Shown here in pieces: positions 3,943-58,205 of a stretch of 64,000 nucleotides of DNA. Below the pieces are notes generated by a model. It had not been told where the DNA came from, did no database searches, and saw nothing but the letters and a program-made list of their open reading frames with translations. Numbering within the stretch: the stretch's first letter is position 1; each line of letters opens with the position of its first letter. The position numbers and the translations under genes were made by a program. This DNA comes from Eledone cirrhosa (lineage: Eukaryota): assembly GCA_964016885.1 (NCBI GenBank), contig OZ024743.1, positions 253,642,001 to 253,706,000 of the forward strand, in the 5' to 3' direction.

Positions 3943-4696
3943 TTCATAGATGGTATTCCAGTCATGTTCATACATCCACATGTAGGTATCATAACGTATG
4001 GTACTATATATTATGAGCCGGTGTTAAAATCGAAATCCTCATATAATTAGTGCTCCAGATTGCGGTCACCCACAGTTATGTACATCTAATTCCGTGTTCC
4101 GAGGGTATTATTGTCCGAACATTGCATGAACACACATTATAGCAGTAGCTTGTTGACTATTCACATGAAGCACGTGGTTAGACAAAGAAACTTAAAATAT
4201 AATATAATATAACATGATATATGACATGACATATAAAATATACAAGTGTACAGAACGAATCAGTAATTCTGTCCAGCGCAACTGTGAGTCAATTAACTCA
4301 TACTTGTTTACATTAACTAAACAACTTGTTCATTAACTAAACAACTTGTTTAGTTAATGGAAGAGAGAGGAGTTTAATCAACTGATAGGAAGGTATATGG
4401 TGCTGATGACAGCTAATAAGCCAGAAACTAGTTCATCTTTCCTTTGTCAGTGTTGAACAAAATGGCAACGATGGTTGCCGAACACTGTACGGCTAATAAT
4501 TCGGGCTGTTTATTTACAAACAAAGCGAGCATTATAATAAATGTTCGGTAAACCCATACGTACATATATATATGTGTTCATGTATGTATAAACATACTAC
4601 TGTACGTCTGTATACATATGTGTATGTACGTATACATACTTATATTTAAGTATCAGCCGTACTAAGAGTGAGAAATGAATGTTCGTTTCATTTTTT

Positions 4697-4745
<49 letters not shown>

Positions 4746-16335: not shown

Positions 16336-16396
<61 letters not shown>

Positions 16397-16465
16397 TATG
16401 AAGAGAGAAGAAACATTTAGATATAATTAGTAATAAAATGTATCATACCTAAACTGTTCCTAAAT

Positions 16466-16553
16466 TCCTCGACTACGTAGTTTCGTGGCATAAACAAAAA
16501 CAATATATCAAAGATATAGAGTCCTTGCGAGGTCTGCCGACTTATCAAGAGGA
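16466..16553 (-). ncRNA. Type-I hammerhead ribozyme, U3-A8 variant (unit 1)
   Basis: Minus strand TCCTC-TTGATAA-GTcGGCA...TGCCAC-GAAAC-TACGTA-GTC-GAGGA. Confidence 0.8.
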
Positions 16554-17056
16554 TACCTCATTTTACTAGTCTCAAGAACGCGTCTACACGACGTGAGAAA
16601 GAATCCCAAAAGGCGGAGGGGGAGATAGTCACGTGATATAACGGTCGAGAAACAGAGCTAAGCCTCTTATAACCACGAAGAAAATACCACGGAGGCGGAG
16701 GGGGTATTCATATCGAGGCCGTAGAAGAGGTAGTGAAGAAGGCGAGAAGTATGAGTAATGGAAGCTTTCCAGTTGTCCCCACACTTCAAAGATTGCTCGA
16801 CCAGAGGGAGTTATTAATATATTTAGAAACACACAGATAAATGCGGACACACACATATATACATGAATGCATCCGCACCCAACTGTGAGTTAAGGGTGCC
16901 AACTTCACCGATGTTGCTCAATGAATGACTGGGACAGACCAATTCAGTTTGAACCAGACTGAACCAGTATCAGAGTTAAAAATACATTATGAAGAGAGAA
17001 GAAACATTTAGATATAATTAGTAATAAAATGTATCATACCTAAACTGTTCCTAAAT

Positions 17057-17144
17057 TCCTCGACTACGTAGTTTCGTGGCATAAACAAAAACAATATATC
17101 AAAGATATAGAGTCCTTGCGAGGTCTGCCGACTTATCAAGAGGA
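17057..17144 (-). ncRNA. Type-I hammerhead ribozyme, U3-A8 variant (unit 2)
   Basis: Same sequence, +591 bp. Confidence 0.8.
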
Positions 17145-17647
17145 TACCTCATTTTACTAGTCTCAAGAACGCGTCTACACGACGTGAGAAAGAATCCCAA
17201 AAGGCGGAGGGGGAGATAGTCACGTGATATAACGGTCGAGAAACAGAGCTAAGCCTCTTATAACCACGAAGAAAATACCACGGAGGCGGAGGGGGTATTC
17301 ATATCGAGGCCGTAGAAGAGGTAGTGAAGAAGGCGAGAAGTATGAGTAATGGAAGCTTTCCAGTTGTCCCCACACTTCAAAGATTGCTCGACCAGAGGGA
17401 GTTATTAATATATTTAGAAACACACAGATAAATGCGGACACACACATATATACATGAATGCATCCGCACCCAACTGTGAGTTAAGGGTGCCAACTTCACC
17501 GATGTTGCTCAATGAATGACTGGGACAGACCAATTCAGTTTGAACCAGACTGAACCAGTATCAGAGTTAAAAATACATTATGAAGAGAGAAGAAACATTT
17601 AGATATAATTAGTAATAAAATGTATCATACCTAAACTGTTCCTAAAT

Positions 17648-17735
17648 TCCTCGACTACGTAGTTTCGTGGCATAAACAAAAACAATATATCAAAGATATA
17701 GAGTCCTTGCGAGGTCTGCCGACTTATCAAGAGGA
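17648..17735 (-). ncRNA. Type-I hammerhead ribozyme, U3-A8 variant (unit 3)
   Basis: Same sequence, +1182 bp. Confidence 0.8.
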
Positions 17736-18056
17736 TACCTCATTTTACTAGTCTCAAGAACGCGTCTACACGACGTGAGAAAGAATCCCAAAAGGCGGAG
17801 TGGGAGATAGTCACGTGATATAACGGTCGAGAAACAGAGCTAAGCCTCTTATAACCACGAAGAAAATACCACGGAGGCGGAGGGGGTATTCATATCGAGG
17901 CCGTAGAAGAGGTAGTGAAGAAGGCGAGAAGTATGAGTAATGGAAGCTTTCCAGTTGTCCCCACACTTCAAAGATTGCTCGACCAGAGGGAGTTATTAAT
18001 ATATTTAGAAACACACAGATACATGCGGACACACACATATATACATGAATGCATCC

Positions 18057-22005: not shown

Positions 22006-22492
22006 TTCAACATTACACAACAACAAACAGTCAAACAACCAACTTCCAAAAGTTGATGATAATGATCAGAGAATCTATGGTAGCAATGTTTATTATAAAG
22101 TTACAGGTAAACAAAGTCTGTGGTTAATTACAAGTGGCTGACTAATGAGTCATGATAATCAGACTATACAAAACAATGATAATAATATTAACAATGATGA
22201 AGAAGAAGAAGAAGAAGAAGAAGAAGAAGAAGAAGAAGAAGAAGAAAAGCAACAACAACAACAATAACAACAAAAAGGATGATGATAATGAGGATGAGGC
22301 ACAGGAGGAGAACAGCAACTTCAACAAGAACACAAACTACATTTAAAAAATTAATAATAATCAAGGAAAGAAAGAAGGAAAAAGTAAAAATTTTGTATGT
22401 GATGCTATAAATAGTTACCTTGTGGTCCGTCAGCAAGAAACCTCAGTTACATAGTACGCCGCCAATACCAACAACAATAATATCACCATCAC

Positions 22493-23726
22493 TACCAACA
22501 ACAATAACAAAACCAATAATACCAACAACATCAACATCCACCACTACCACTACCAACAACAATAACAAAACAAATAATACCAACAACATCAACATCCACC
22601 ACTACCACCACCAACAACAATAACAAAACCAATAATACCAACAACATCCACCACTACCACTACCAACAACAATAACAAAACCAATAATACCAACAACATC
22701 CACCACTACCACTACCAACAACAATAACAAAACCAATAATACCAACAACATCAACATCCACCACTACCACCACCAACAACAATAACAAAACCAATAATAC
22801 CAACAACATCAACATCCACCACTACCACTACCAACAACAATAACAAAACCAATAATACCAACAACATCAACATCCACCACTACCACCACCAACAACAATA
22901 ACAAAACCAATAATACCAACAACATCAACATCCACCACTACCACCACCAACAACAATAACAAAACCAATAATACCAACAACATCAACATCCACCACTACC
23001 ACCACCAACAACAATAACAAAACCAATAATACCAACAACATCAACATCCACCACTACCACCACCAACAACAATAACAAAACCAATAATACCAACAACATC
23101 AACATCCACCACTACCACCACCAACAACAATAACAAAACCAATAATACCAACAACATCAACATCCACCACTACCACCACCAACAACAATAACAAAACCAA
23201 TAATACCAACAACATCCACCACTACCACTACCAACAACAATAACAAAACCAATAATACCAACAACATCAACATCCACCACTACCACCACCAACAACAATA
23301 ACAAAACCAATAATACCAACAACATCAACATCCACCACTACCACTACCAACAACAATAACAAAACCAATAATACCAACAACATCAACATCCACCACTACC
23401 ACCACCAACAACAATAACAAAACCAATAATACCAACAACATCAACATCCACCACTACCACCACCAACAACAATAACAAAACCAATAATACCAACAACATC
23501 AACATCCACCACTACCACCACCAACAACAATAACAAAACCAATAATACCAACAACATCAACATCCACCACTACCACCACCAACAACAATAACAAAACCAA
23601 TAATACCAACAACATCCACCACTACCACTACCAACAACAATAACAAAACCAATAATACCAACAACATCAACATCCACCACTACCACCACCAACAACAATA
23701 ACAAAACCAATAATACCAACAACATC
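22493..23726. repeat. 58/52 bp minisatellite, about 21 units
   Basis: Unit ACCAACAACAATAACAAAACCAATAATACCAACAACATC(AACATC)CACCACTACCACY. Confidence 0.95.
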
Positions 23727-24499
23727 AGCAATAACATCAACGTCACTACCAACAACAACATCACCAGCACAAATGACATCAACAATAACATCAGCAATAA
23801 CAACATCAATAATACCATAAACAACACTACCACCAACATCAAAACCAACAACAGCATCAAGACCATCACTATCACCAACAACAATTAAACTACCACAAAC
23901 AACATCGCTACCAAGGCACAAACACTAATACCACCAACAACAAATTATTCAGACTCCATTCGTTATCTGGTAGTTTATTAGTTTTATTTAATTTGCATGA
24001 TTGCACATAGCTTATACACCCTGTGTGTATGTGTACAATATGACCGCTGCAACCTAATGATGTCCATCATCCCCTATACCAGTAAGTGATGTAGATCAGT
24101 GCTTGTTTTGTAGTGATGTGGCAGCATAGAGGACTGGTTTAATTCTTCCATGAGCAGTAAGGTTATAGTTAATAGGGTCAATTGTAGATTTACATTACTT
24201 AGGTTCGGGGTTGGCTTTGATTTAATCTCGATCTATTTACGTTCAAATCAATGTAACGGGCAGTCTTAGTTAAAGACATACAATACATTCTGTGATTTAT
24301 ACCCCTCCCAACTTCCGTTCTTAGCCACCCACTTATCCTCTGTGGCTATTTTCTGAAATAGCATGCACTACTGACTGCTATACCCCATTCTATTGTATAC
24401 TTTGATCACAGCTGTGGACACTACTATATACATTTCTCTCTTTTCGTTTGGACAGCATTCCATCGTATACTTCGATCACAGACCTGAATACCACCTACA

Positions 24500-25600: not shown

Positions 25601-26063
25601 ATAAGGAATGTCGAAACCTGTAACTAAAATCCCAGTCATTTAGAACATTTAGGGTACATATTTGTTATTAGTGTTAACACCTTGTATCTCGGCTCTGTAA
25701 TACACTTGAAAATTTGCATTGAGTCTTTTGTCATACCGGTAACCGGCTCGTACTTAGTACTATCCTACATATTTATAGTTATATCAAACATATATAAATA
25801 TAAATATTACTATATATATATGTGTATATATATATATATATAATTAAGTTAAAGATGTACATCCATATATGTATACTGAAATACTAGTATGTATATGAAT
25901 ACACACACGTATACATATGTAGGTGTACCAAGTTTTTTCACTGGTCACTTTACTGTGAGTGGCCAGCTATTCTGTATGTAAACACACAGACAAACCGGTT
26001 TTTAGAGTCATACTGGTTTTTGAGGAAACACCTCTCCTCTATTCTCCAGAAAGCCAGACAAGG

Positions 26064-26108
26064 AATATTGAACTAGTTTCGTTGTTGTTACAACTCATCA
26101 GCAATATT
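26064..26108 (-). ncRNA. Canonical minimal hammerhead ribozyme
   Basis: Reverse complement of 26660-26704. Confidence 0.9.
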
Positions 26109-26659
26109 TACCTATCTTCCGGCCTCTCTAGAGAATCGTAAAAGCACATATCATTATATGCTTTTTCTATGAAAATTAGTAGTGGGCAGACTAATTTGCA
26201 TAGAGTGTGAGTAAGTACCGGTTCAACGGAGACGATAAAAACAAATAACGAAACGAAATTAAATTTCGTTTCGTTTGTAACTCACTTTTGTATGACTGAC
26301 GCTTAAACAATTAAGTTAAAGATGTACATCCATATATGTATACTGAAATACTAGTATGTATATGAATACACACACGTATACATATGTAGGTGTACCAAGT
26401 TTTTTCACTGGTCACTTTACTGTGAGTGGCCAGCTATTCTGTATGTAAACACACAGACAAACCGGTTTTTAGAGTCATACTGGTTTTTGAGGAAACGAAA
26501 TTAAATTTCGTTTCGTTTGTTATTTGATTTTATCGTCTCCGTTGAACCGGTACTTACTCACACTCTATGCAAATTAGTCTGCCCACTACTAATTTTCATA
26601 GAAAAAGCATATAATGATATGTGCTTTTACGATTCTCTAGAGAGGCCGGAAGATAGGTA

Positions 26660-26704
26660 AATATTGCTGATGAGTTGTAACAACAACGAAACTAGTTCAA
26701 TATT
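26660..26704 (+). ncRNA. Canonical minimal hammerhead ribozyme
   Basis: AATATTG-CTGATGA-GTTGT aaca ACAAC-GAAAC-TA-GTT^CAATATT; predicted cleavage after 26697. Confidence 0.92.
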
Positions 26705-27126
26705 CCTTGTCTGGCTTTCTGGAGAATAGAGGAGAGGTGTTTCCTCAAAAACCAGTATGACTCTAAAAACCGGTTTGTCTGTGTGTTTACATACAGAATA
26801 GCTGGCCACTCACAGTAAAGTGACCAGTGAAAAAACTTGGTACACCTACATATGTATACGTGTGTGTATTCATATACATACTAGTATTTCAGTATACATA
26901 TATGGATGTACATCTTTAACTTAATTGTTTAAGCGTCAGTCATACAAAAGTGAGTTACAAACGAAACGAAATTTAATTTCGTTTCGTTATTTGTTTTTAT
27001 CGTCTCCGTTGAACCGGTACTTACTCACACTCTATGCAAATTAGTCTGCCCACTACTAATTTTCATAGAAAAAGCATATAATGATATGTGCTTTTACGAT
27101 TCTCTAGAGAGGCCGGAAGATAGGTA

Positions 27127-27171
27127 AATATTGCTGATGAGTTGTAACAACAACGAAACTAGTTCAATATT
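27127..27171 (+). ncRNA. Canonical minimal hammerhead ribozyme
   Basis: Identical, +467 bp; predicted cleavage after 27164. Confidence 0.92.
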
Positions 27172-27460
27172 CCTTGTCTGGCTTTCTGGAGAATAGAGGA
27201 GAGGTGTTTCCTCAAAAACCAGTATGACTCTAAAAACCGGTTTGTCTGTGTGTTTACATACAGAATAGCTGGCCACTCACAGTAAAGTGACCAGTGAAAA
27301 AACTTGGTACACCTACATATGTATACGTGTGTGTATTCATATACATACTAGTATTTCAGTATACATATATGGATGTACATCTTTAACTTAATTGTTTAAG
27401 CGTCAGTCATACAAAAGTGAGTTACAAACGAAACGAAATTTAATTTCGTTTCGTTATTTG

Positions 27461-27555
<95 letters not shown>

Positions 27556-27657
27556 ATATATATAGTAATAATAATAAAATTGAAGACTAAAATCCAAAGA
27601 GGGCTCGATAAGGAAAATATATATCAAATATATAAGAACCGTAGAGCAAATATTTAT

Positions 27658-29667
27658 GCCTTTTATTTCGATAATCCGCGAAAAGCAGACAACAAACAGG
27701 ATAAATTTGGATTTAAAACCTATAATAACCCTCCGTGGAACCCAGCATTGCTACCCTTCGAAAATGATGTCTTGGAACTCATTCGGAATATCAAATTTCG
27801 GGATAGGAGCAAATCCTTACAGCAAGACATGAAGAATAGAATTCGTTCTATTAAGGATTCTAACGCCGTGCACGTCCATTCCAACAAAACTGGCAACCTA
27901 TATCAAGTGGAGCGCAGTACTTACCATCAACTACTACATAATGCTGTAACTAAGGATTACCGTAAAAATAATCGGTGCGTCATCAATGAAATCAACGATG
28001 CTGGGTTTAAAATCACATCTGATCTCAACATCCTGGACCGGACCGAACCTCTGGACCCTATCTCCCCCCACTTTACCCTGAAGGATCACAAATCCAATTT
28101 TCCGAACAACCACTCTATTCGGCTTATTAACCCTACGAAGTCCGATTTAGGTAGACTTAGTAAAACGATTCTTGATAGAATTATACCTGAAATTAGAAGT
28201 TTGGCCCCTCTCGCACTGTGGAACAATTCTTTCGCGGTGATTGATTGGTTCAACGGCATATGTAACAAGGAACAGTGCCGTTTTATCCAATTCGACATCA
28301 ACCATTACTACTCCTCCATCACTTTACCACTTCTCCTTAGAGCTATCAATTTCGCTAAAACACTCACAGTGGTTAAGGATTTTGAAGTTGATGTCATCCT
28401 CAATGCCCGAAAGTCGGTGATTAATTTCGACGAATCTATTTGGATTAAAAAATCCAATAGTACCCCATTCGACGTGAGTATGGGCGCCAGTGACTCTGCG
28501 GAGGTTACTGATCTTATTGGCCTTTTCCTTCTTTTCTCTATGAAGGACGAATTCCCCAACGCGGGCGGTCGTTTGTACCGTGACGATGGTCTTTTGACCA
28601 TGACTAAGTGCGGACCTCGTGTTTGCGACAGGTTCAGAAAAGAACTCACAGCCTTCTTTAAAGGCTTCAACCTCTCTATACAGGTTGAGGCCAATCTCTC
28701 GGTCGTTAATTACCTCGACGTTACCCTCAATTTATTGAATGGGTTGTATTACCCGTATAGAAAGCCGAATGATACGCTTAATTATATAAGTAAGCATTCC
28801 AACCATCCTGCCAGCATAACCAAGAACCTGGTAAGAAACGTTTCGTTGAGGCTTTCCCGTCTTTCCACCAACGAGCGCATTTTCAACGACCATTCTACTT
28901 ATTACAATGAAGCTCTTGCCCGAAGTGGATTTGTCGATAAGGTAGCATATACTGAGTACGAAAATAGACCTAGAAGAAATAGATCCCGTCGCATTTGTTG
29001 GTTTAACCCACCATATAATATGGAGGTGGCCACACCATTAGCTAAGATCTTTCTTTCCTTATTACGAAGCATTTCCCCCTACACATAAACATTAAAAAAT
29101 GTTAATAGAAATACTATTAAAATTTCTTACTCTACCACTCCTAACCTTGCACATAGCATCACAGCTTCAAATTTAGCTAAACTACCTAGCCGTAGGAACA
29201 CGTGCAACCCTGTAGTTAGTACTAACTGTAATTGTAGGAATCGGGCTGATTGCCCCCTATCCGGGGAATGCCTCTCTAGTAACCTTGTCTACAAATGTAA
29301 GGTTGTAACACCCACGTCCCGTAGGGCCTACATAGGGTTAACCGCCAATAGTTTCAAGCAGCGTCTCTACATCCATACCCATTCTTTTCGTTACCCTCTA
29401 AGAAGGAATATGACGTCACTTTCAGCTTATATCTGGAGTCTAAAAGACAACCACACCCAATATAAGTTACACTGGGAGATCCTAGCTAGGGCTAGATCGT
29501 ATAACGGACATAAAAGACCATGTGACCTCTGCGCCGCTGAGGCCCTGGAAATACTCTACGCCACAGACCACATCTTAAACAAAAAATCTGAGGCAATTTC
29601 GGCTTGTAAACATAAATTGCACAAGACTTTCCTGTATTACAGCCCCACGTTATACCCTAACGGATAG
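27658..29667 (+). pseudogene. PLE polyprotein: RT, Cys-rich linker, GIY-YIG endonuclease; one lesion (TAA at 29086-29088)
   Basis: QFDINHYYSSI, MGASDSAEVTDL, LYRDDGL, YLDVTL, SNHP, WFNPPY. The same frame continues NRNTIKISYS, CNCRNRADCPLSGEC, LVYKC..AYIGLT..FKQR, CDLC..E..LNKKSE..CKH. Motif set resembles Naiad-type PLEs (clade from recall, needs phylogeny). Confidence 0.9.
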
Positions 29668-30594
29668 CACGATGTATACGTGGATATTTTACGTCTTGAT
29701 GTGGGAGCTACGTATATGTTTGTTTATTCCTTTACTTATTTGCATAGGTAACTATATATTACCCGTATGTTTTGTGAAGGTATGTATACCTTCTCGTACT
29801 TATATTTGACTGTTATGGCGTATACTTTTTACATATTCTGGTACATATGGTTTGGCTATGTGTATACGGGAGTTTTGCGTCTGCGTGAGTATGCAGGTTC
29901 GTACGTATGGTGGTTGTGTGTATATGTGTATTTCTTGTTTTAGTTGACTTACGTCTCCGAACATTCGTGTATTTATATGTAGGTATGAGTGTGCGCTTGT
30001 TATATACGTATTTATTTACTTATATACGTTTATATAATTATTTATTTATTTGTACACAAGCATACACATACACACATATTTATATGTGCGTGGTTTTGTA
30101 TACCTACGGTAAGGTTTTGCATATGCTTGTGTATGTACGTATCTGTTTGCGTGTATGTATTTATTTGTTTCTATTACTTCTGTATTGTATTTATTTACTT
30201 TGATCTTAACTCTGTAGCGGAGATTCATTTCGTCTCCTAGTTAGAATTTTAGTCTACGACTTCTGCTTACCATTTACGTGATTTTGTCTTTGCGTGCTAT
30301 TGTTCCCCACGCTCCACATATGACTTATTATCTTCGTTTTTTTCGTTCATTGCCAGAGAACGTCTCTATGCACCACCTAAGAGAACATTAGTCTACGACC
30401 TCTTTTATACCATAAACGTGGTTCTGTCTTTGCGCGTAATTGTTTTTCACCGCTCCTATTAATGACGTATTATTCGTTTTTTCCCGTTCTTTGCCAGCGA
30501 ACGTTACCACGAACCAAAGTATCGTCTTCCTGTCTTCCTCCGGTTGCAACGTTTTTTGAAATATCCAGTTCTGCGTTTACAGATTGACTTTGTT

Positions 30595-30645
30595 AGTTTC
30601 AGAAGATCCCGTTAAGGGTGAAAGCAGCGATTCTTTGCTTAAACT
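30595..30645 (+). ncRNA. HHR of the PLE pseudo-LTR (U4A core)
   Basis: AGTTT-CAGAAGA-tCCC gttaa GGGt-GAAA-GCA gcgattctt TGC-TT^AAACT. Confidence 0.65.
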
Positions 30646-30661
30646 TTAATCTGTTATTTTA

Positions 30662-30738
<77 letters not shown>

Positions 30739-41442: not shown

Positions 41443-43687
41443 ATTTGCATTTATCTTGCTTTATGTTCATACGAGTTATCACCAAGTCACAACCAGTGAC
41501 CTCAAGAGACAACAAGGTCCGCCATGTTCAAGAAAGAAAAAAACATACTCACACATGCATCTTTAGTGTTTAGACTTGTGATATACGTATATTGACAGAA
41601 TCTTCCTTAGTATATGGGCAGTTCCCATTAGTACTATCTTTTGTATTTCTCCTATACGCGGGTTTCCTGGGATTTGCGATAAGCAATTATTAGACCCCTC
41701 AGGTATCATTCCCAGAGCGCCCACAACCACTGGTATTGTTTTAGTTCTCAATTTCCACATTTTTCCAATTTCTATCTCCAGGTCCTTATAGTTGCTCAAT
41801 TTTTCAAATGTTTTTATAGATACATTCTTGTCTATTGGAACAGACATATCAATTAGCAGGTATACCCTCTTTTTAAAGTCCTTCAATATTATATCAGGTC
41901 TATTTGCATCTATTTTTCGGTCTGTTTGGATGCTAAGGTTCCACAAGATTGAGATGTGATCTTTTTCAAGTATGGGAGGTGGTTGATGCTCCCAGCAATT
42001 CTTTTGATGGGGCAGGTCAAAATACTTACACATTATCCAATGTATGTATTGTGCAGCTCTGTCATGCCTGTTTAGGTATTCGGTTGGAGCTATAGGACTG
42101 CACATTGAAATTATATGGTCAATGGTCTCTGGTTGTTTTTTGCATACACGACATAATGGGCTGCATCCATTTTTTATTATGTTGGCTTGGTAATTTTGTG
42201 TTGGCAGACACTGATCTTGTGCTGATATAATCAGTCCTTCAGTCTCCGATTTCAGTCCAGAGGATGCCAACCACTGATGGGTTAAAGTTTTGTCAACATC
42301 AGGATTGTTAGCTCGCTCTGGCTATTTTCCATACAGAGGCTTTTCTTGCCATTTCTTAGCCAGTTTCTGTAGCAGTTCTTTCTTTGCAGTTACTTTTACC
42401 TGCTTTGCTTTTTCTGTGTTTTCCATTTCAGCAGTAAATGGGACTTTTGAAATTTGTAGTCCATTACTGTATCTTTGTGCATCTTTTGTAATGGAATATG
42501 ATCTTTTGATGCTTTCGTGTTTCAAAACGAGTTTGATCATCCAATCATGTGATTCCCTTAGATATGTAGATAATCCAATTGTTGCAGTTTTCAACGCAAT
42601 GTCTAACTGGATTAACCCACGTCCTCCTTCTTTCCTAGGGAGATATATTCTATCTATATCTGCCTTAGGGTGATGCATTCTGTGCATGGTTAAGAATTTT
42701 CTAATTTTTGTATCGAGTCTACGGATCTCTGTGCTTGACCAGTTGATGACATTGTAACTGTAGGTTACTACTGGTATGGCAAGCGTGTTTATGGCATCGA
42801 TCCTATTGCTTGCATTCAATTCCGTTCTTAAGATTGCTCTTACTCTGCGGTAACATTCCTTCCTTATCCTTTCCCTCATTGTCGAGTGCTTGATTCCGTC
42901 TCCTTCACAAACACCTAGATATTTGTAAGTTTTTTCTTGATCAAGTTCTCTTATCACGTTCCCCCGATCAAGATTAATGTCTGAAATCTTCAGCAGCTTT
43001 CCTCTGGTGAACGTTGCTTTGGCGCATTCATCTAGTCCAAACTCCATTTTAATGTCATCACTGAACTGCTCCACAGTGGATAATAGCCCTTGCATTTGTT
43101 CATCATTTTTTGCAAATAGTTTCAGGTCATCCATGTAGAATAGGTGATTAATGGTTTTGTCATAGACTCTATATCGATGTTTTGTTTCATTGAGCATTTT
43201 ACTTAATGGTATAAGTGCGATGCAGAATAAAAGAGGTGATAAAGAGTCACCCTGAAAAATTCCACAATTAATATTAACTTCTCCAGCTTCCAGTGATTTT
43301 GTTTCACTATTCAAAAGGAGTGTCGTGTTCCATGTCTTCATACTGAATGACAAAAACCTCCTGACAACGGCAGGTCAAAATGCTTATACATTATCCAATG
43401 TATGTATGGTGCAGCTCTGTCATGCCTGTTTAGGTATTCGGTTGGAGCTATGGGACTGCACATTGAAATTATATGGTCAATGGTCTCTGGTTGTTTTTTG
43501 CATACACGGCATAATGGGCTGCATCCATTTTTTAATATGTTGGCTTGGTAATGTTTTGTTGGCAGACACTGATCTTGTTCTGATATAATCAGTCCTTCAG
43601 TCTCCGATTTCAGTCCAGAGGATGCCAACCACTGATGGGTTAAAGTTTTGTCAACATCAGGATTGTTAGCTCACTCTGGGTATTTTC

Positions 43688-43689
<2 letters not shown>
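41442..43689 (-). mobile_element. R4/Dong-type RLE LINE family A, 5'-truncated composite
   Basis: GIFQGDSLSPLLF, HLFYMDDLKLF, CRVC..ETIDHIISMC, RHD, RPDI..IDMSVP..EK..Y.DL; 43370-43689 repeats 42011-42329. Confidence 0.92.
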
Positions 43690-43733
<44 letters not shown>

Positions 43734-43745
43734 GTTATTGTTATT

Positions 43746-46700
43746 CCTTGAATCTCAGTCATTGATGTTGGTTAACTGGAAAGTCCGTTGGATTGAATAT
43801 CAAGCCACTACCTGCAGCCTCAGATATTCAGGACGTATCGGAGGGTTCTTGTTGTTCCAAGCAAGCATGCCTTTTGAAGCGTTCCAAAAAGCGTGAAGGG
43901 GCCGATTTTCTTTAACCATCCCTGGAAACCTTTGGAGATAGTCCCCAGTGCGCCTATGACAATCGGGATCACTTTGACTTCATGGCTGTTCCAAATCCTT
44001 TTCACCTCCCACTTTAGGTCCTGGTATCGGTTAATTTTCTCCCTCTCCTTCTCTTGCACTCTCGTGTCGAACGGGCAGGCCACATCCACAATCAGGCACG
44101 ATCTTTTTTCTTTGTCCACAACCACCAGGTCAGGTCTATTGTGTTCCAGTTTTTTGTCCGTCTGTATCCTAAAATCCCACAGCACCTTCACCTGACTGTT
44201 CTCCATCACCGCCTCTGGCCTATGCTCATACCATTTCTCAGAATGTGGTAGATTGTTTACTTTGCACAGGTGCCAGTGGATCACCCTGCCCATCACATCG
44301 TGTCTCCAGCCCTTATAGTGGGTCTGGGCTAGGTGTTTACACTCGGACACAATGTGAGCCACAGTCTCCTCTCTCTCTCCACAGATCCTGCACAGTGGGC
44401 TAGCCTCCTCCTTGTAGATATGGTGCTTCAACCACTTCGTTTTGAGGGCCTGCTCCTGCGCAGCCATAGGCATTCCTTCTGTAGCCTTTTTGAGGTCTCC
44501 TCTTCTCAACCAGTTCCATGTCGGTGGATCTCTAAATTCAGTTTTCTCAAAGAAGGTACTATGAAGGGATTTTCCCTTAAGGCTGCTCTTCCTCCTTGAT
44601 GTTATTTCCTCCTTGGACATCCCCTGGCCTACTGTCCCCTCCTTCAGTACAGCTCTGAGCATTGGCTCCTTACTATAGGTCACGTATTTGTATAGGTTGT
44701 TTTTCTCCATCTGAACACAGTCCTCTATGCTGATAAGACCTCTTCCACCCTCAGATCTCCTTAGGTAGAGTCTATCGACATCACTCCTCTTGTGGAACAT
44801 GTTGTAGATAGTCAATAGCTTCCTAGTCTTCCTATCCATTTCTTTTTGTTCAGCAACATTCCATCTCAGAATTCCCGCACCGTACCTAATAATAGACACA
44901 GCTCGGGAATTTACTGCGCTTATGGCATTTCTGCTGTTCAGATGTGACTTCAATACGCTCCTTACTCTCCGAATGTATTCAGTTCTTAACAATTCCTTCA
45001 TTTTTTTGTTCTTTATGCCATCAGCCTCCAGAACGCCCAAATACTTGTATCCTTCCTCAGAGTCAATTTCCTTTATCATCTCACCTGTTGGTATCTGGAT
45101 CCCGTTACTTCTGCTCAACCTACCCCTCTTCATCACAATGACTCCACATTTACCAATACCAAACTGCATACATATATCACTGCTGAAAATACGGACAGTG
45201 TCAACAAGCACATCCAACTCCTTCTCACTTTTCCCGAAGAGCTTAAGATCGTCCATGAAGAGGAGGTGATTGATGGTAAGCTCTCCCCTTCCCAACTTGT
45301 ATCCTGCTCTCACTTTTCGCAGCATAATGGTCAAGGGCATCAGGGCAAGGACAAACAACAGAGGGGACAGGCTATCTCCCTGGAAGATACCTCTCTTGAT
45401 CTTCACGCTTCACAAGGATACTCCAGTTGATGTCAACTCTGTCTCCCAGGACCCCATACTCCTGCCCAGCAACTGTCTGATGTTATCTGCCACCCTGAAG
45501 ACCTCCAGGCTTTTGGTGATCCAGGAATGAGGCACCATGTCAAATGCCTTTCTGTAGTCTATCCATCCCATGGCAAGATCAGTGTGTCTCCTCCTGCAAT
45601 TCCCCATTACCATCTTATCAATAAGCAACTGGTCCTTTGTACCACGTGACTTCTTTCGGCATCCTTTCTGTTCGTCCGGTAACAAGTTGTTTGTGTGGAG
45701 GTGATGGTAGATTTCCTCAGACACAATGCTCGTCAACAGTTTCCACATTACGGGCAGACATGTGATAGGTCTATAGTTGGTAACATCATTACCCTTGATT
45801 CGGTCTTTCATTATCAGAACTGTGGTATCTTTTGTCAACCACTCTGGCACCTCACCCGACACCAAGCAGTCATTGAACATGGCCGTCAGCTTCGGGTGGA
45901 GGGATGTTAAATGTTTAATCCAATACCCCTGCACACCATCTGGGCCTGGTGATTTCCAGTTGGTTAGTTTTTTGGCTTGCCCCTTAAGAGTTTCAACTGT
46001 GATACTCAAATCAGTTTGTTATTGTGCCTTCTCACCGATCTCCCTCTGTACTGTCTCAATCCACCCTGCCTGGGCATTGTGTCTAACATCCTGCTCCCAT
46101 ATTCCTCTCCAGAATGTTTTAGCTTGTTCCGCCCCAGGGATCAAGTCGTTGCCTCTTTCTTTCCCCTCAAGCTGTCCAAACAGCATCTTCTGGTTGTTGT
46201 CGAACATGCGGTTCTGTTTATACTGACTGACTCTGTTCTCGTATCGCCTGATTTTGGCACTCTTTGCTACAATGCGTTGCTTCAATTCCTCTATGATAAT
46301 ATTTAGCTTTTTACTCCTAGTTTTGTATTTTATTTACAGTCTATTTTTAGTGCCTATGTTTTTTAGTGTCCCATTCAGTAGTGACTCAAGCTTTCCTATG
46401 TCATTTCTCATTTCCCTGATTTGCCCACTCAGTCGCTTCTTCCACCACGGCTCTGCTCTTTCTTGTCTGTTGTTTCCTCTCGCTTTTATACCAAGTAGTT
46501 TCCTCACCGTATTTGCTGTTGCTTTGAGGATATTGTTGCACTGGTGAAGACTCCTCGCCTCAAGGTATGGGATGACTTTGTTTACCTTAGCTGTTGTTTC
46601 TTTTAACTTTTTCCTGTCTACAAATCTTAGGTTCATAGGTCTCCCACTATCATTGTTCAATTCATCTACCACTAGATTTAGGATGTCAACCGAATCTTGT

Positions 46701-48292
46701 CCTAGCCCGTCAGCATTCATCTCCTCAGTGGCCGTATCTCTGTTCCAGGTATTATTTATCTCAGTATTCAAATCATTGTCTGCTTCGGGTGGTTCCTCCG
46801 TTCTCAGGACCTCCTCACCTTCATTTCCCACCGGCTCGCTTGTCTGGCATACTACACCCGCCATCTCCAAGCCATTCTCTCTGCTCAGTTCCTCCAGTTC
46901 CAGCTCGCTTATCCACCCATTAGTTCTTATTACCCGAGCCTGCCCGGCCAATTTTTGTTCATCTAATTTAAATAAACCAATCTCGTTCCAGATGTTATGC
47001 ATCCGTCTCCTGTAGCCCCTCTCCTTGGGGTTACTTTTCAGGTAGCATTGCATAACAGTTCTATTCAATTCTTTCGTCCAGTTGGTTCTGGCCCCTTTCC
47101 TTCTTCTTCTTCCTCCAACATCAGCAGTATTTGGTTGACAGTCAGGTTCCTGCTGCTGAGCCAGGGGGCACCTGTTGGGTGAGAGTCTGTCACATGACGT
47201 TCTAGTCTCCATTTCACCGTTATTCGAACTGTTTATGTTCGATATTTAAACACTCTTATCGAGGATTGGCGAATGTATGTTTACATAGCCATCTGTGGAT
47301 CCGCCATCCCACTTGGCCCTTGTGTGGCATTATCACCACGCTGTATACGAAGACACATAAACAAACAAACACACGGGCAGAAAGGGCCCCAAAAATGAAT
47401 AAGCATAAGTTTCATTGTAATGTAGTATTCGAATGTCTGACTTAGTTTTTGTTTTTTAAGTTTTACTTTTTCCCCCCTCTTCTCTGTCCGTCCGCCTGCT
47501 TCTCTCTTCATTCTTATTTTCTTTACGTTTTTGGGGTTTCTTTTTTTGTTTTTGTTTTTCTCTGTTTGTTTTTCTCGTTTTTTGCTGTTGTTGCTGTGCT
47601 GCTTTGGTTTTGTTGTTTGTTTTTTCTTTTTTCTTTTGAGTCTATCTATATATTTTGATGCCTTCCTCTTTGTTAGTAGTAGGGATTCTATAATGTGGAC
47701 GTAGTAGCAGCCAGCAGGGAGAAGTGGGAGAGGGCGGCGTTGGCGATACTGAGACAGTGGTGGTGGTGATGTCGATACCGAGGCAGTGGTGGCGGTGATG
47801 CGACCGTATTACTGTAGTGATGGTGCTGTAGCGGTGGCAACAGCAGTGAAGGAGTCAAGGGGTGGTGGTGGCGGTGATGGGATAGTGGTGGTAATGATGG
47901 CCGTAGTGAGCGGTGGCGGTGAAGGTGAAAATGCTGTTGTGTTTAGTATACACAGATGATGGGGTGGGTGGTGTATCTAGTTTCTGGTGTTGGTGAGTTT
48001 AGCTGTCCTATATAGTGTAGCCAGAGGAGAGGGGGGGGGGGTTCTTCTTCTTCCATTTAGAGCCATTTTTTTTTTTTTTTGGATATACAGTGTACAATAC
48101 GAAGTTGAATATTTGAATATTTGAGCCTTATAACAATATATTTTGGGTCCGAATTTTTTGGGGCTCAAGCCGGGTGCTTTACGTAGCATTTGTACTAAGA
48201 GTTGTTATTTCACAAATGATTTAAATATGTTAAAAATTCAAAACTTACGGGAGCGATTTCATGACCTCCGTCACCTCGTGCGTCTTCTTCCC
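43746..48292 (-). mobile_element. R4/Dong-type RLE LINE family B, full-length
   Basis: (TTA)n on both sides; ~1 kb 5' UTR; single disrupted ORF. Confidence 0.92.
43820..47245 (-). pseudogene. R4-B ORF: Myb-like domain, RT, CCHC, PD-(D/E)xK endonuclease
   Basis: NWTKELN, KSPGPDG, WIDYRKAFD, HLLFMDDLKLF, CRICGEREETVAHIVSEC, RHD, RPDLVVVD. Start codon ATG>ATA, stops at 46334 and 46019, frameshift near 45408. Confidence 0.9.
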
Positions 48293-48358
<66 letters not shown>

Positions 48359-48359
<1 letters not shown>

Positions 48360-51300
48360 AGTTGCATTTATCTTGCTTTATGTTCATACGAGTTATCACC
48401 AAGTCACAACCAGTGACCTCAAGAGCCAACAAGGTCCGCCATGTTCAAGAAAGAACATACATATTCACACATGCATCTTTAGTGTTTAGACTTGTGATGT
48501 ACTTATATTGACAGAATCCTCCTTAGTATATGGGCAGTTCCCATTAATACTATCTTTTGTATTTCTCCTATACGCGGGTTTCCTGGGATTTGCGATATGT
48601 AATCATTAGACCCCTTAGGTATAATCCCCAGAGCACCTACAACCACTGGTATTGTTTTAGTTCTCAATTTCCACATTTTTCCAATTTCTATCTCCAGGTC
48701 CTTATACTTGCTCAATTTTTCAAATGTTTTTATAGATACATTCTTGTCTATTGGAACAGACATATCAATTAGCAGGCATACCCTCTTTTGAAAGTCGTTC
48801 AATATTATATCAGGTCTGTTTGCATCTATTTTTCGGTCTGTTTGGATGCTAAAGTTCCACAAGATTGAGATGTGATCTTTTTCAAGTATGGGAGGTGGTT
48901 GATGCTCCCACCAATTCTTTTGATGGGGCAGGTCAAAATGCTTACACATTATCCAATGTATGTATTGTGCAGCTCTGTCATGCCTGTTTAGGTATTCGGT
49001 TGGAGCTATAGGACTGCACATTGAAATTATATGGTCAATGGTCTCTGGTTGTTTTTTGCATACACGGCATAATGGGCTGCACCCATTTTTTATTATGTTG
49101 TCTTGGTAATTTTTTGTTGGCAGACACTGATCTTGTGCCGATATAATCAGTCCTTCAGTCTCCGATTTCAGTCCAGAGGATGCCAATCACTGATGGGTTA
49201 AAGTTTTGTCAACATCAGGATTGTTAGCTCGCTCTGGGTATTTTCCATACAGAGGCTTTTCTTGCCATTTCTTAGCCAGTTTCTGTAGCAGTTCTTTCTT
49301 TGCAGTTACTTTTACCTGTTTGCTTTTTCTGTGTTTTCCATTTCAGCAGTAAATGGGACTTTTGAAATTTGTAGTCCATTACTGTATCTTTGTGCGTCTT
49401 TTGTAATGGAACATGATCTTTTAATGCTTTCGTGTTTCAAAACGAGTTTGATCATCCAATCATGTGATTCCCTTAGATATGTAGATAATCCAATTGTTGC
49501 AGTTTTCAACGCAATGTCTAATTGGATTAACCCACGTCCTCCTTCTTTCCTAGGGAGATATATTCTATCTATATCTGCCTTAGGGTGATGCATTCTGTGC
49601 ATGGTTAAGAATTTTCGAATTTTTGTATCGAGCCTACGGATCTCTGTGCTTGACCAGTTGATGACATTGTAACTGTAGGTTACTACTGGTATGGCAAGCG
49701 TGTTTATGGCATCGATCCTATTCCTTGCATTCAATTCCGTTCTTAAGATTGCTCTTACTCTGCGGTAACATTCCTTCCTTATCCTTTCCCTCATTGTCGA
49801 GTGCTTGATTCCGTCTCCTTCACAAACACTTAGATATTTGTAAGTTTTTTCTTGATCAAGTTCTCTTATCACGTTCCCCCGATCAAGATTAATGTCTGAA
49901 CTCTTCAGCAGCTTTCCTCTGGTGAACGTTGCTTTGGCGCATTCATCTAGTCCAAACTCCATTTTAATGTCACCACTGAACTGCTTCACAGTGGATAATA
50001 GCCCTTGCAATTGTTCATCATTTTTTGCAAATAGTTTCAGGTCATCCATGTAGAACAGTTGATTAATGGTTTTGTCATAGACTTTATATCCATGTTTTGT
50101 TTCATTGAGCATTTTACTTAATGGTATAAGTGCGATGCTAATAAAAGCGGTGATAAAGAGTCACCCTGAAAAATTCCACAATTAATATTAACTTCTCCAG
50201 CTTCCAGTGATTTTGTTTCACTATTCAAAAGGAGTGTCGTTTTCCATGTCTTCATACTAAATGACAAAAACATCCTGACAACGGGGGATACTTTGAAAAT
50301 CTCTAAACATTTTTCAATCCAACTGTGTGGCAAACTATCAAATGCTTTTTTATAGTCTATCCAAGCAATCGATAGATTTTTGTGTCTATTATGACAATCT
50401 TCCAGTATCATTTTGTTAACCAGAAGCTGATCCTTACAGCCATATGAGCCTCGTTTACACCCTTTCTGCTCAATGGGAAATAGGTCATTTGTTATCAGGT
50501 GGTCATATGTGTATTCAGTTAGGACTGATGTTAAAATTTTATACATTGTGGTCAGGCAAGTTATCGACTGTAATTTTTGGGATTGTTTGTCGCATCATTC
50601 TTCGGAAGCAAGAATGTAATGCCGTTAACTAGCCATGAAGGTATCTTTTCTGGCTCCTTAACTATTTCATTGTAAAGTTGGGCTAACAGCTCATGAGACT
50701 CTGTGAAGGCATTTATCCAAAAGTTTTGTATTTTGTCTTTTCCTGGGGATTTCCATTTGCTGGTTTTTCTTAGAGCCAAGCGCAACTGTTCAACTGTTAT
50801 ATTTTCCCATGTTTGTTCCTCAAGGTGAGCTGTATCTTTCATTTGTCTGTCTGTCCATGGGGCATGTATGTTATGAACTTTTTCTTCGGCCCAGATCTTT
50901 TCCCAGAATTCTTTCACTTCCTCATTGGGTGGTATTGATTTAGCAGTTATTGTTGACTTACCAATTTTTCTGTAGAAGTTTCTTTGGTTCTTTTTGAACA
51001 TATTATTGTCCTTATAGAATATAGATCGTTTTTCAAAGCGCCTTATACGAGCAGCTTTGGCCGACACTTTTTGCTTGATTATTTCTATCAGTATGTCTAT
51101 GTCACATGTTGATTTTATACTGTACTTTTTTTTCAATTTTCTTAGTTTAGTTTGTTTAACATGTTCACCTACTTTATAGTTTGTTAAAATTTCTATGTCA
51201 GATCGGAGAAGGTTTATTTGGCGATTGATGTTCTCTTGCCAAGTAGATTTCTTGTGGGAATTCCTTTGTTTTTTCGTCTTCACTCCACATAAGTGAGTGG

Positions 51301-52235
51301 TACTTTAGCCGATGCATAATAGAGATGATTTAAATCAGTAATGTTTAGTTTGTTTGTGATGATAATGTTTTTGAGAATTATGTTAGTCCTGTGTATTATC
51401 TTTTGATTCTGTTTGGAGTTCTGGATCTTAGGGAGGGTGTCTCGTTGCCCCATGTCAGAATCTTTCATTTTCATCCATTCGATCATAATTTCATCCTTCA
51501 AGTTGGCAAGTTCATTCTCATTCATTTCTTTATCATTTACGATCTCATTATTTTCATTTGGGGTTTCATCCTGAGCATGCACCCCCTCCACCTTTTCGAT
51601 CCTTTCTTTAATTTGTTCTGTTGCCAGTGATTCCGCACCAACCCTGGGATTCGAAGTGTTACAGTTTACCTCGTTTTCACTGACACATGTTTCATTTTCC
51701 CTTCGCTGACTTTGTGCTAATAGCTTGATCTGATCAATTTCTATATCAGTTAGTAACTTTTTTCTTACAATATTTCTTCGTATATTGGCTAGTTTGTTAC
51801 TGTCAATATAGCCTCTGTTTTCGGGATGTTTCTTTTTCCAGTTGATATATGTCTGTTCTGTATTCGATGTATTTGATGGGTAGTACATGGCAGTGTAGAA
51901 AGCCTCAAGGACTTCTTTATTATCTTCCCTTGACCATTTTTCTCTCTTTTTCTTTGGATTTCTTGGTGGTGAGCATGGAGGGCCAACAGTAGGAGTATTC
52001 CGGTTATGGGAGGTCTCCAGCTCCGAAGTGATGGGAAGGTTTGAACCATTAGCTGATTTTTCGACCCCAGTCTGGTTCCTCTCTGAGCGACGCGGCCCTT
52101 TTTGACCCGGGTGACGGCCGATCCGGTATGAGATTTTATCATTAGACATTTACTTTATTTTTTCGCGTTTTATCCTTATCCGCCAAGGGGTAATCATTTC
52201 GTGTTACCACTTCTAGAACGAGTGTCAACCAAGAC
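48359..52235 (-). mobile_element. R4/Dong-type RLE LINE family A, near full-length
   Basis: (TTA)n on both sides; ORF fragments span 52149-48503. Confidence 0.92.
48503..52149 (-). pseudogene. R4-A ORF (RT + RLE), disrupted
   Basis: REKWSREDN, KSPGKD, WIDYKKAFD, FYMDDLKLF, CCHC, RPD. Frameshifts near 51280, 50561, 50118 and 49312; TGG>TGA near 49190. Confidence 0.9.
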
Positions 52236-52436: not shown

Positions 52437-52650
52437 GAATGCCATGGTTGACGGAGGCTCGGCTCTGTAAGGTATAGTAATTTTTAACCGTTAAAACAAT
52501 TGTAAATTGTTTAAAACTTGAACCAAATTGTTGATAAAGACACCCTCCTCCTCGTGAGAGGGGTCTTTCTGTCCGTTATTTGGCCCTTCGGGGTTAAATA
52601 ACCAGTTATTGGGGTTTTGTACCCAATATTCATTTTAAACAAAAAACAAC

Positions 52651-54750: not shown

Positions 54751-54785
54751 GTGGTCTTTCCCATCTTTTCCACTCTATTTTAAAC

Positions 54786-57700: not shown

Positions 57701-58205
57701 CCAGAAATCTCTGGCCTGGCAGTGCTACCGAGGAGCCTTGCCAGTTCGGGATAAACTCTACAGGCATGGAGGTGCCGTCAGCCGGGCATGTCCGAGATGC
57801 GCGCAGGGCGACGAAACCGTCCTGCACGCACTCGTCCAGTGTCCGAAAATTGCTGACTTGTGGGTTTATGTCGAACACCTGCTGTCGCGTTTAGGACGGA
57901 TCCAGCTATCATCTGAGTCTATCGTGAGGATTGCCCCGCCCTCCTCCTTTAGCCGGGAAGGGCAGGCAGTTTTTATCTGTCTGGTGGCCATGGCGAAAGA
58001 GATAGTATGGTGGACACGTTTGAAAGGGCTGAAGACGAGCACTTACCTCTTCGGTGATGCTCTGATTGACTTTTTCAAATTTCATTTGAAAAGGAAAATC
58101 AGAGTAGAGAAGGAAGTGCTCTCTTCCCAGCATTTTGTTGAAAGATGGGTGAGAGAAGCAAGAATGGCCCGAGTGAATGGGCCGACTCTGAGTATATATC
58201 TGTAA
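54786..58205 (+). CDS. Tx1 ORF2p: APE endonuclease, RT, C-terminal zinc finger, 1139 aa, intact
   Basis: SINARGL, ISET, VYAP, GDWN, SYLDR, TDH, GYWKLN, KSPGLDGLPYE, DQSKAFDRVDH, RQGCPLS, AYADD, CPRC..ETVLHALVQC. Confidence 0.95.
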   Translation: MTSLRIGSINARGLGSSWKQGHLLNDLRSLNIDVVAISETRISEARAFAPIFGGYDVYASPSRPGSGGGVAVLFRRGLDLAIRAIFLDPEGKLVVLDVTSGDGQAFRLVAVYAPTGAGRPFFFRRLETFLGTSRSLVLVGDWNGILDARWDCVGLADRGGGCKSLTNLLRRFELSDRYRLDFPNVPMWTWTNRIGSSRSYLDRVFCREIDRSSIGCPQFKIVSYTDHKFVTCVLDLDRLHRRGPGYWKLNASLPARKAYRDRISELVKRALTGAIVNNKWWFALKRAIRIESIRFSKALAIEKNRAEGELVRKLDEALSKGIATDVLAAKLALDQFFNAKHEGCVVRARVRALRHEGTKAIQWARVAEARRGNKATIRSLVDHDGRMLLDPGQMCEAFQRHFAQLFGGSGGPGRGMDFSVYLDGLPRLSATEAKCCEKPITAAEVREAMTGCTRGKSPGLDGLPYELYVQMPDLFGGLLADVYCNWQQNGRIPSSVSRGAVALLRKDPNKGDNIDNFRPITLLNTEFKILAKVLAKRLALVVGGLVGEAQTCAIPDRSIHDNLHLMRYIVERVAREPGTGGSLINLDQSKAFDRVDHRYLAADLRAAGFGPVFRGWIAAMHSDICSVVRVNGHLSEPFNIMRSVRQGCPLSSLLYVLTLEPLLHKLETLRGVPRELGCGRSVSAYADDVTVVVSNAKHIEAIGTTLREYEAVTGAMINQEKSVGLQLGTRRGRSIPSNSVVGRWTDGPVKLLGVWFGPDLQTDKNWDEVTSRVASLTQKWAERKLYLKGRAEVANAYIASVICYRLTVVPCPKPRLTALERLLFRFLWKGRAPMVRRSICCQHPLRGGLGMPWLMMRRHALRLRHLHLFLDGEQVWSPFARRVFPQLVSLTELQSWVKRRPRGSAWRLECLQALTALDQSGNVIGGNSTSAFYRGLVEGKSDDVLGETLGVDENQLANLFGRTFGPGPMDNFQKSLAWQCYRGALPVRDKLYRHGGAVSRACPRCAQGDETVLHALVQCPKIADLWVYVEHLLSRLGRIQLSSESIVRIAPPSSFSREGQAVFICLVAMAKEIVWWTRLKGLKTSTYLFGDALIDFFKFHLKRKIRVEKEVLSSQHFVERWVREARMARVNGPTLSIYL

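Follow-up and report, generated by a model that had tools for sequence, protein, structure and literature searches.

PLE insertions comprise partial tandems, an adjoining inverted and truncated copy and a one-sided tail (Craig 2021, PMC8557442), and how these tandem and inverted insertions are made is stated to be open in the same paper. Purified PLE protein from Anolis nicks AT-rich DNA, extends both of its strands and begins at two internal sites, the spacer between them being the tail; hammerhead cleavage was dispensable in vitro, and the model put forward by the authors has a linear multi-copy mRNA (Frangieh 2024, PMC11167929). For retrozymes, Cervera and de la Pena (2020, PMC7229834) hypothesized that a primed circle gives rise to tandem cDNA through a PLE or LINE enzyme, and both the mobilizer and the formation of tandem arrays are stated to be open (PMC7229834; Li et al.). 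The preprint of Li, Clavereau and Pollet (2026; here Li et al.) bases a link to PLEs on co-occurrence and on homology to pLTRs, and it prefers local growth of the arrays. The retrozyme class and the primed-circle idea are already known, and the insertion-level mechanistic evidence is the new part of the present analysis; we found no report of a two-end tail signature or of single-template evidence in retrozymes, in a search that covered the main texts of the retrozyme papers and few subscription papers.

Here we describe an insertion in a 64,000-nucleotide stretch of the Eledone cirrhosa genome (the window, to which all positions refer) that we read, on balance, as a non-coding hammerhead retrozyme whose self-cut 467-nt circular RNA was copied by a PLE protein from two sites. 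Hammerhead cores with the sequence CUGAUGA lie at 26667 (+), 27134 (+) and 26101 (-) of the 64-kb window, within type I hammerheads at 26660-26704 on the plus strand (predicted cut after 26697), 27127-27171 on the plus strand (predicted cut after 27164) and, in an inverted arm, 26064-26108 on the minus strand. Stem I of the first hammerhead has 7 bp (26660-26666 with 26698-26704), and the motif further comprises a 5-bp stem II, GAAA and a GUU cleavage triplet. Apart from these three cores the window has no full motif, and none was present in any of 15 mononucleotide shuffles. In E-value mode, Rfam assigned all three to Hammerhead_HH9 (37.7 bits, E 4.3e-7; the gathering score of 52 was not reached), while a search of the window at the gathering threshold gave no match. 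The stems, core, triplet and Rfam assignment bear out the original prediction of three canonical hammerheads, and its word "perfect" needs the qualifier that stem III is minimal, with just 2-3 bp and a loop that is a 1-2-nt palindrome, a type that may require dimers (PMC6765202).

The predicted cleavage sites are spaced exactly 467 nt apart and delimit a monomer at 26698-27164 (+); unit numbering starts at 26698, the base after the predicted cut. The left arm (25842-26496, minus strand, 655 bp) carries unit 42-467 and then 1-229, reaches (TA)n at 25842 with its "short" end (unit 229) and is the perfect reverse complement of 26739-27393. The right arm (26493-27467, plus strand, 975 bp) runs through unit ~262-467, 1-467 and 1-303 and abuts (TA)n at 27467 with its "long" end (unit 303); its segment at 27394-27467 (+) can be tied to the tail concept of PMC11167929. 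At the inner junction (26493-26527) the arms share a 4-nt AAAC overlap, and the strand switch lies inside a near-palindromic hairpin. Tandem copies in the window differ by five mismatches and one gap, all of them in the first 35 nt past the inversion and so inside this junction, and every unit carries a change at position 385 that is the majority allele at no other locus among the first 32. The insertion is flanked by (TA)n on the left (25790-25841) and by (TA)n/(GA)n on the right (27468-27554), the latter being common to the retrozyme and PLE insertions. The tandem and inverted layout, the exact spacing of sites and the (TA)n bounds were thus all as first described, and so was the near identity of the copies, but the three hammerheads do not amount to three whole units, the arms comprising 1.4 (left) and 2.1 (right) units. 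The element contains no stop-free frame of 120 aa or more, and its anatomy is arm-based, without an LTR/PBS/PPT structure (PBS and PPT judged from anatomy only). Self-cleavage, circularization and read-through dsRNA would be expected from this arrangement, as far as it can be read from DNA. Its non-coding tandem units with a type I hammerhead each, low GC and paired predicted circle are shared with animal non-LTR retrozymes, as are the PLEs in the same genome, the target duplications of more than 4 bp and the dispersed copies. The 467-bp unit is larger than the 170-400 nt given in PMC7229834 and falls within the 51-972 bp of Li et al.

A census of genome copies had been proposed as a check, and we counted pattern matches in the 3.0-Gb assembly. 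A pattern for the hammerhead core gave 6,251 matches (control 0), and a pattern for the long end followed by (TA)n gave 2,277 (control 0), which corresponds to at least 2,277 dispersed insertions. The short-end pattern gave at least 725 matches on the forward strand (control 0), the reverse count of 1,349 being inflated by overlapping matches. Intact cores alone account for ~2.9 Mb of the genome, and copies are ~85% to 100% identical to the window unit, which supports the view of a young or recently active, dispersed element of retrozyme type. When the spacer in the pattern was lengthened from 12 to 14 bases, two sites only were matched, either unrelated or variant, and hammerhead-like cores with shorter spacers were mostly family variants or unrelated single sites. 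Some twenty scattered single hammerhead-like cores (L124 and the non-family rows of L246-L273) have a varied stem II and stand in no tandem relation to the family; they are probably old PLE ends. The unit was also present in six public runs under four organism labels, none of them on record as RNA. In one of these runs (X3, record 9), a single 497-nt contig of low depth spans the whole unit and closes on itself, which fits a circular RNA or a tandem.

Throughout the genome, a complete insertion consists of two tandem arms pointing outward, with ends at unit 229-234 and 303. When the first 100 core matches were taken in coordinate order, they yielded 26 insertions, 21 of which ended at 228-234 on one side and at 301-304 on the opposite side, and none of which had like ends; in 5 of the 21 one arm was merely ~8-14 nt long, and the other 5 of the 26 were one-armed, truncated or ran into a gap. 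Similarly, 41 of 45 neighbouring end pairs in the first 117 Mb of contig C1 were short plus long and diverging; among the exceptions inspected, two cases were separate neighbouring insertions and one was a true short/short insertion that had been counted twice. A partly selected set of 65 two-armed loci, from which 12 compound or interrupted loci were excluded, contained 57 short plus long, 2 short/short, no long/long and 6 unclear cases. Since short ends on both sides were seen (L295, L296) and long ends on both sides never, the two start sites may be non-equivalent. Inner junctions were scattered anywhere along the unit. Target duplications of 9-16 bp were found at 5 informative sites of 20 checked, the rest lying in TA-repeat flanks; these lengths include microhomology and are therefore upper bounds. 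In an independent short-read sample, loose ends before (TA)n correspond to 26931 and 27000, that is, to unit 234 and 303, and many different inversion-type joints were present at low, single-copy depth.

This two-site end signature with its tail is that of PLE insertions, and we are therefore highly confident that the retrozyme was mobilized by PLE-type machinery. Diverging arms, two fixed 3' ends that bound a tail, 9-16-bp duplications and AT-rich or (TA)n targets are all shared with PLE insertions, as are the type I hammerhead and an inverted, 5'-truncated arm beside a direct arm (PMC3846280, PMC8557442, PMC11167929). Unlike PLEs, the unit contains no ORF for RT and GIY-YIG; its tail is 69-74 nt long compared to 30-40 nt in PLEs, its start sites lie far from the hammerhead, and its arms reach up to 31 full turns, whereas PLEs usually form partial tandems. 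Inverted arms, fixed ends and a tail also set it apart from retrozymes as presented in the main texts of the retrozyme papers, where PMC7229834 has no occurrence of "inverted" and Li et al. none of "tail". Newt satellite 2, Schistosoma Sm-alpha and the hammerhead satellites of cave crickets, which PMC7229834 and PMC6765202 name, were compared by description, and the present family differs from them in offering more than 2,200 individual insertions with defined ends.

The two arms of an insertion closely resemble each other. Across 37 loci (5 compound loci excluded), arm majority sequences within a locus differed by 0.44% compared to 2.6% after permutation, and none of 2000 permutations was as low. 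At one locus, 20 full units distributed over both arms were all identical and all carried 337G/341G/342G. The likeness of the arms and such locus-specific changes across 20 units point to a single template for each insertion. Arm lengths had medians of 649 and 692 bp and maxima of 6.3 and 14.4 kb, and of 57 loci compared, 32 had the greater length in the long-end arm and 25 in the short-end arm (rho 0.17); since either may be longer and the lengths are uncorrelated, neither arm appears to have been copied from the other. Unit-to-unit junctions at the cut site were exact in 436 of 441 cases. No variant recurred among the units of 37 out of 54 arrays. The other 17 had recurring variants, with a period of 2 in three loci, 4 in one and 6 in one, a haplotype switch in one array (M048) and a mosaic in a 31-unit array (M162), which indicates that multimeric templates or later expansion at the DNA level also contribute. 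Repeated passage round a monomeric circle is the simplest account of the arrays, which appear to have been born multi-unit, and we consider that the template was probably circular in the main.

The same two-site priming by a PLE could have used an uncleaved linear multimer from an existing array instead, the hammerhead being incidental to transposition. This is the alternative that survives best, although we regard it as unlikely. Hammerhead mutants left insertion by the Anolis PLE in vitro unaffected (PMC11167929), eight of nine Xenopus retrozyme dimers remained uncleaved in vitro (Li et al., bioRxiv 10.64898/2026.07.22.740005), stem III is short here, and the periodic or shared variants of the 17 arrays are what a multimeric template would leave, as in L280, whose outermost units both carry 24A/50A. 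However, copying from a linear multimer can only shorten arrays, yet arms with a median of 650-690 bp reach 6-14 kb, and changes fixed over up to 20 units and both arms would need a single-monomer bottleneck followed by multiplication. Moreover, core and stems are intact at all 6,251 sites, while the core of an autonomous PLE family in the same genome (family C, described below) is degenerate.

Growth of the arrays after insertion is considerably less probable still. In this scheme a PLE would insert short copies, and unequal crossover or slippage would lengthen them later at the DNA level, a history that has been suggested for retrozymes of vertebrates (Li et al., bioRxiv 10.64898/2026.07.22.740005), and the mosaic of recurring variants in M162 and the period-6 pattern in L281 would fit such a history. 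Against it, both arms of many young loci contain a number of identical units, and just 0-2 differences occur in several kb of sequence, which would require the two inverted arms to have expanded repeatedly and independently before a mutation arose, and multi-unit arms are common, well beyond a few loci.

Consistent with a template that acts as RNA, the monomer folded as a circle reached -146.5 kcal/mol compared to -91.5 +/- 5.9 for 60 shuffles (z ~-9), and the predicted structure is branched and highly paired and leaves the hammerhead formed. Most of the frequent changes within the family are compatible with pairing, among them the replacement of U-A by A-U in stem II, and double pair-keeping subfamily changes occur at 36-45 and 445-456. 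We also identified a sister retrozyme family with units of ~431-433 bp that are 65% identical to the 467-nt unit (275 of 422 columns). A first look gave 4,560 candidates; one copy lies in the window (4372-4705, plus strand) and others at L356:30-825 (minus strand) and L358-L387. The sister family is older, with copies mostly 91-95% alike, and apparently more abundant, and stem II of its hammerhead begins with a U.U pair. Its predicted fold has the same helices (-144.6 compared to -95.6 +/- 5.8). Out of 154 predicted pairs, 66 are unchanged in the sister, 13 changed on one side, 12 on both sides, 33 broken and 30 gapped. The sister arms end at homologous positions (~218-224 and 281), and all of the loci with both ends clear (9 of 30) are short plus long. 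That a sister at this level of identity keeps the branched fold and both end sites argues for constraint at the RNA level, against which the broken and gapped pairs have to be set. The sister tail of ~60 nt is shorter because its long hairpin is, so that the end sites seem to be set by structure and not by distance.

An imprint of A-to-I editing was also considered. A>G changes outnumbered T>C changes by 18 to 3 over 54 loci, but some of these were subfamily sites, and with stricter filters over 92 loci the difference faded (17 vs 9, p 0.17; 20 vs 14 distinct alleles, p 0.39). A>G changes were enriched among locus-fixed changes (17 of 46) compared to single-unit changes (17 of 179), which selection tolerant of changes that keep pairing also explains.

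Next to the retrozyme, 87 bp beyond its right end, a PLE begins at 27555. Its inverted arm (27555-27657, minus strand) consists of its own tail only and ends at its long end, and a 5'-truncated copy with RT and GIY-YIG follows at 27658-30669 on the plus strand, broken in frame near 29086-29088 and with its short end preceding (TA)n. The presence of its own inverted tail beside a 5'-truncated copy marks this PLE as a complete, separate insertion into the same microsatellite. Pfam gave no match for its frames. An intact copy of the same family, which we call family C, encodes 709 aa, with relatives at ~40-57% identity. The features used to recognize the Hydra clade (a single ORF, a C-terminal GIY-YIG, RWK, DKT and a CxCX5C linker) were found as a set in family C, with RWR, CNCRNRADC and either DKT (L221) or NKT (the window copy and L113), along with the preference for insertion into (TA)n; family C and two other families here appear to belong to this clade. 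All three Hydra families have intact ORFs and two fixed ends each that abut (TA)n, with tails of ~72-80, 76 and 88 nt, few ends having been seen for families A and B; (TA)n targeting, the two-end signature and tails of ~72-88 nt are thus common to the retrozyme and to Hydra-clade PLEs (Craig 2021). The window copy of family C has a degenerate hammerhead (30595-30645, plus strand) with the core CAGAAGA and a U.U at the base of stem II. This core is common to 76 of 77 family C copies examined, and the hammerhead looks decayed with its stems still present. The hammerhead of family A is also non-canonical, with a long stem II that starts with U-A (L196), while the non-autonomous retrozyme keeps a canonical one.

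That the retrozyme and the adjoining PLE have no sequence in common, as first noted, was confirmed: the local alignment score of 55 lies within the shuffled range (51 +/- 8; 92 of 300 shuffles reach it), and comparisons focused on the ends revealed no similarity. The end look-alikes TTAAGC, AACCGG and CACTCTA were at chance level, and the idea of an ACTCT at the ends fails in the oldest subfamily. In families A, B and C (L196:1191-1500, L220, L113), each end lies a few bases 5' of GCTC, with a partner GAGC followed by (A/C)CTCT. This GCTC...GAGC(A/C)CTCT arrangement is a candidate protein-binding element that might set the start sites; unlike the three Hydra families, the retrozyme has no such stems after its two ends. 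Comparison with the three families and with 30 GIY-YIG loci, nearly all Neptune-like, gave no sequence link to the retrozyme within a PLE survey that covered the best-scoring loci of 89,186 and 10,596 candidates. A meaningful adjacency of retrozymes and family C was not borne out either (13 copies in 349 kb near retrozymes vs 6 in 287 kb of control; rough binomial p ~0.17). Family C copies are at most 99.6% identical to each other, and the family is older than the youngest retrozyme copies. The original prediction of a partnership with a PLE therefore holds for mobilization, which the two-site ends support, and not for a special link to the neighbour, which is older than the youngest retrozyme copies, not significantly enriched and an insertion of its own. 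In family A, 16 of 25 copies have a relative at 99.4-100% (two of these being arms of one locus), and Neptune-like GIY-YIG matches are at most 97.5% alike. Given these near-identical young copies and the greater age of family C, family A fits the youngest retrozyme copies better as a helper candidate, on circumstantial grounds.

The unit could alternatively be the terminal repeat (pLTR) of a further autonomous PLE, of which the copies are truncated versions. PLE insertions share exactly the combination of tandem, inverted arm and tail, among the 57 retrozyme families of Xenopus there are 24 that match known elements, almost always PLE ends (Li et al.), and our survey took in only the best-scoring candidate loci. 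Nevertheless, at 115 loci arms that pass a full turn re-enter the unit, and none was seen to enter an ORF. Of 25 loci with matches to PLE proteins, 18 were separated from these by (TA)n and 7 had matches on both sides or between the arms, the latter not each settled base by base, and no chimeric retrozyme-PLE junction occurred among 21 non-canonical ends. Furthermore, the distance from the hammerhead to the start sites is 229 and 303 nt, compared to ~25-40 nt for the short end of families A and C of the Hydra type. We find this origin very improbable; in contrast to the subset of families in Li et al. with pLTR homology, the link to PLEs here lies in the signature of the insertions, and the three Hydra families and 30 GIY-YIG loci compared showed no such homology.

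To the same low degree we credit a scheme with a single primed cDNA, in which fold-back self-priming or an antisense template gives rise to the inverted arm, and the endonuclease trims this arm at the second site. Inner junctions were within 25 nt of mirror symmetry in 16 of 65 cases (p 0.0014), or 11 of 60 without the hairpin cases (p 0.06), the window junction changes strand in a hairpin, and self-priming has been proposed from junction palindromes in rotifer PLEs (PMC3846280). An arm copied in this way cannot outgrow its template, but the arm lengths are uncorrelated and either of the two can exceed the other (32 vs 25); the alternating variant of L057 is not mirrored between the arms, and two starts on both nicked strands have been demonstrated biochemically (PMC11167929). 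The mirror-symmetric junctions may be due to a common break at which both enzymes stopped, or to a degree of fold-back. Finally, a chimeric-read or assembly artefact, which the original prediction had named as its refutation, can be dismissed for the family, as dozens of loci show the same arrangement with fixed outer ends and differ from one another in inner junction and haplotype, independent short-read contigs hold both fixed ends and inversion joints, and target duplications flank the insertions, while the failure of the public contigs compared to bridge the inner junction of the window itself is not evidence either way.

The mechanism that we favour, copying of a circular retrozyme RNA by a PLE protein from two sites, would proceed in six steps. 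A tandem copy would be transcribed and its hammerheads would release the monomer, as the intact core and the exact unit junctions suggest, and a host ligase, by analogy with other animal retrozymes, would close the monomer into a circle. A PLE protein, probably a dimer, would then nick both strands of an AT-rich target ~9-16 bp apart, the spacing being that of the observed duplications. Each nick would prime cDNA synthesis on the same RNA, at unit 229-234 and at 303; these are the ends found in the insertions, and priming at them is suggested by the biochemistry of the Anolis PLE. Each reverse transcriptase would circle the template, from a few bases to many turns, which is the range of arm lengths that we measured. 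The cDNA ends would join at variable points, often with microhomology, to give the two diverging arms that are seen in the genome. The helper would most plausibly be a (TA)n-targeting PLE of the Hydra clade, the young family A rather than the neighbouring family C. A more specific version is tentative, and we give it slightly less than even chances: a protein-free circular RNA parasite, independent in sequence of PLE terminal repeats, that presents two structure-defined starts to a PLE dimer and is copied by two simultaneous rolling-circle reverse transcriptions.

With this family, over 2,200 insertions become available as natural products in which the two start sites can be placed to within a few bases. 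Their haplotypes link each insertion to a single template, and comparison with the diverged sister reveals the structures that matter. Together with the near-identical intact Hydra ORFs of the same genome, the 467-nt unit could serve as a defined substrate in the PLE assay that has been published for use in vitro. Should the circle model be correct, this would be a case of rolling-circle reverse transcription building genomic tandem repeats de novo in an animal germ line. If the reading as a circular parasite is true, the family would be the first genomic read-out of a retrozyme life cycle, and circular templates would then be a conceivable source of the tandem pLTR and the inverted structure in PLEs as well.

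In addition, the window contains a third young dispersed tandem family (16394-18056) with (TA)n-bounded units of 591 bp that are 96-100% identical. It also occurs at L037:1479-3277, L170:3766-4820, L341, L052, L057 and L065. Its copies end repeatedly near unit 1 and unit 424, and L341 has an inverted arm. Searches of this family for a hammerhead motif and for relevant Rfam matches were negative. Folded as a circle, its minus strand reached -172.6 compared to -131.6, values obtained without a shuffle control, and it may represent a parasite of the same machinery that has no ribozyme or an unknown one. An apparently intact two-ORF LINE lies at 52639-58205 on the plus strand, with stop-free frames of 703 and 1204 aa in which endonuclease and RT motifs were read by eye, and decayed LINE copies occupy 41500-52200 and 58800-62000 on the minus strand. 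A 58-bp minisatellite of 22 copies, 95% matched, is located at 22464-23727.
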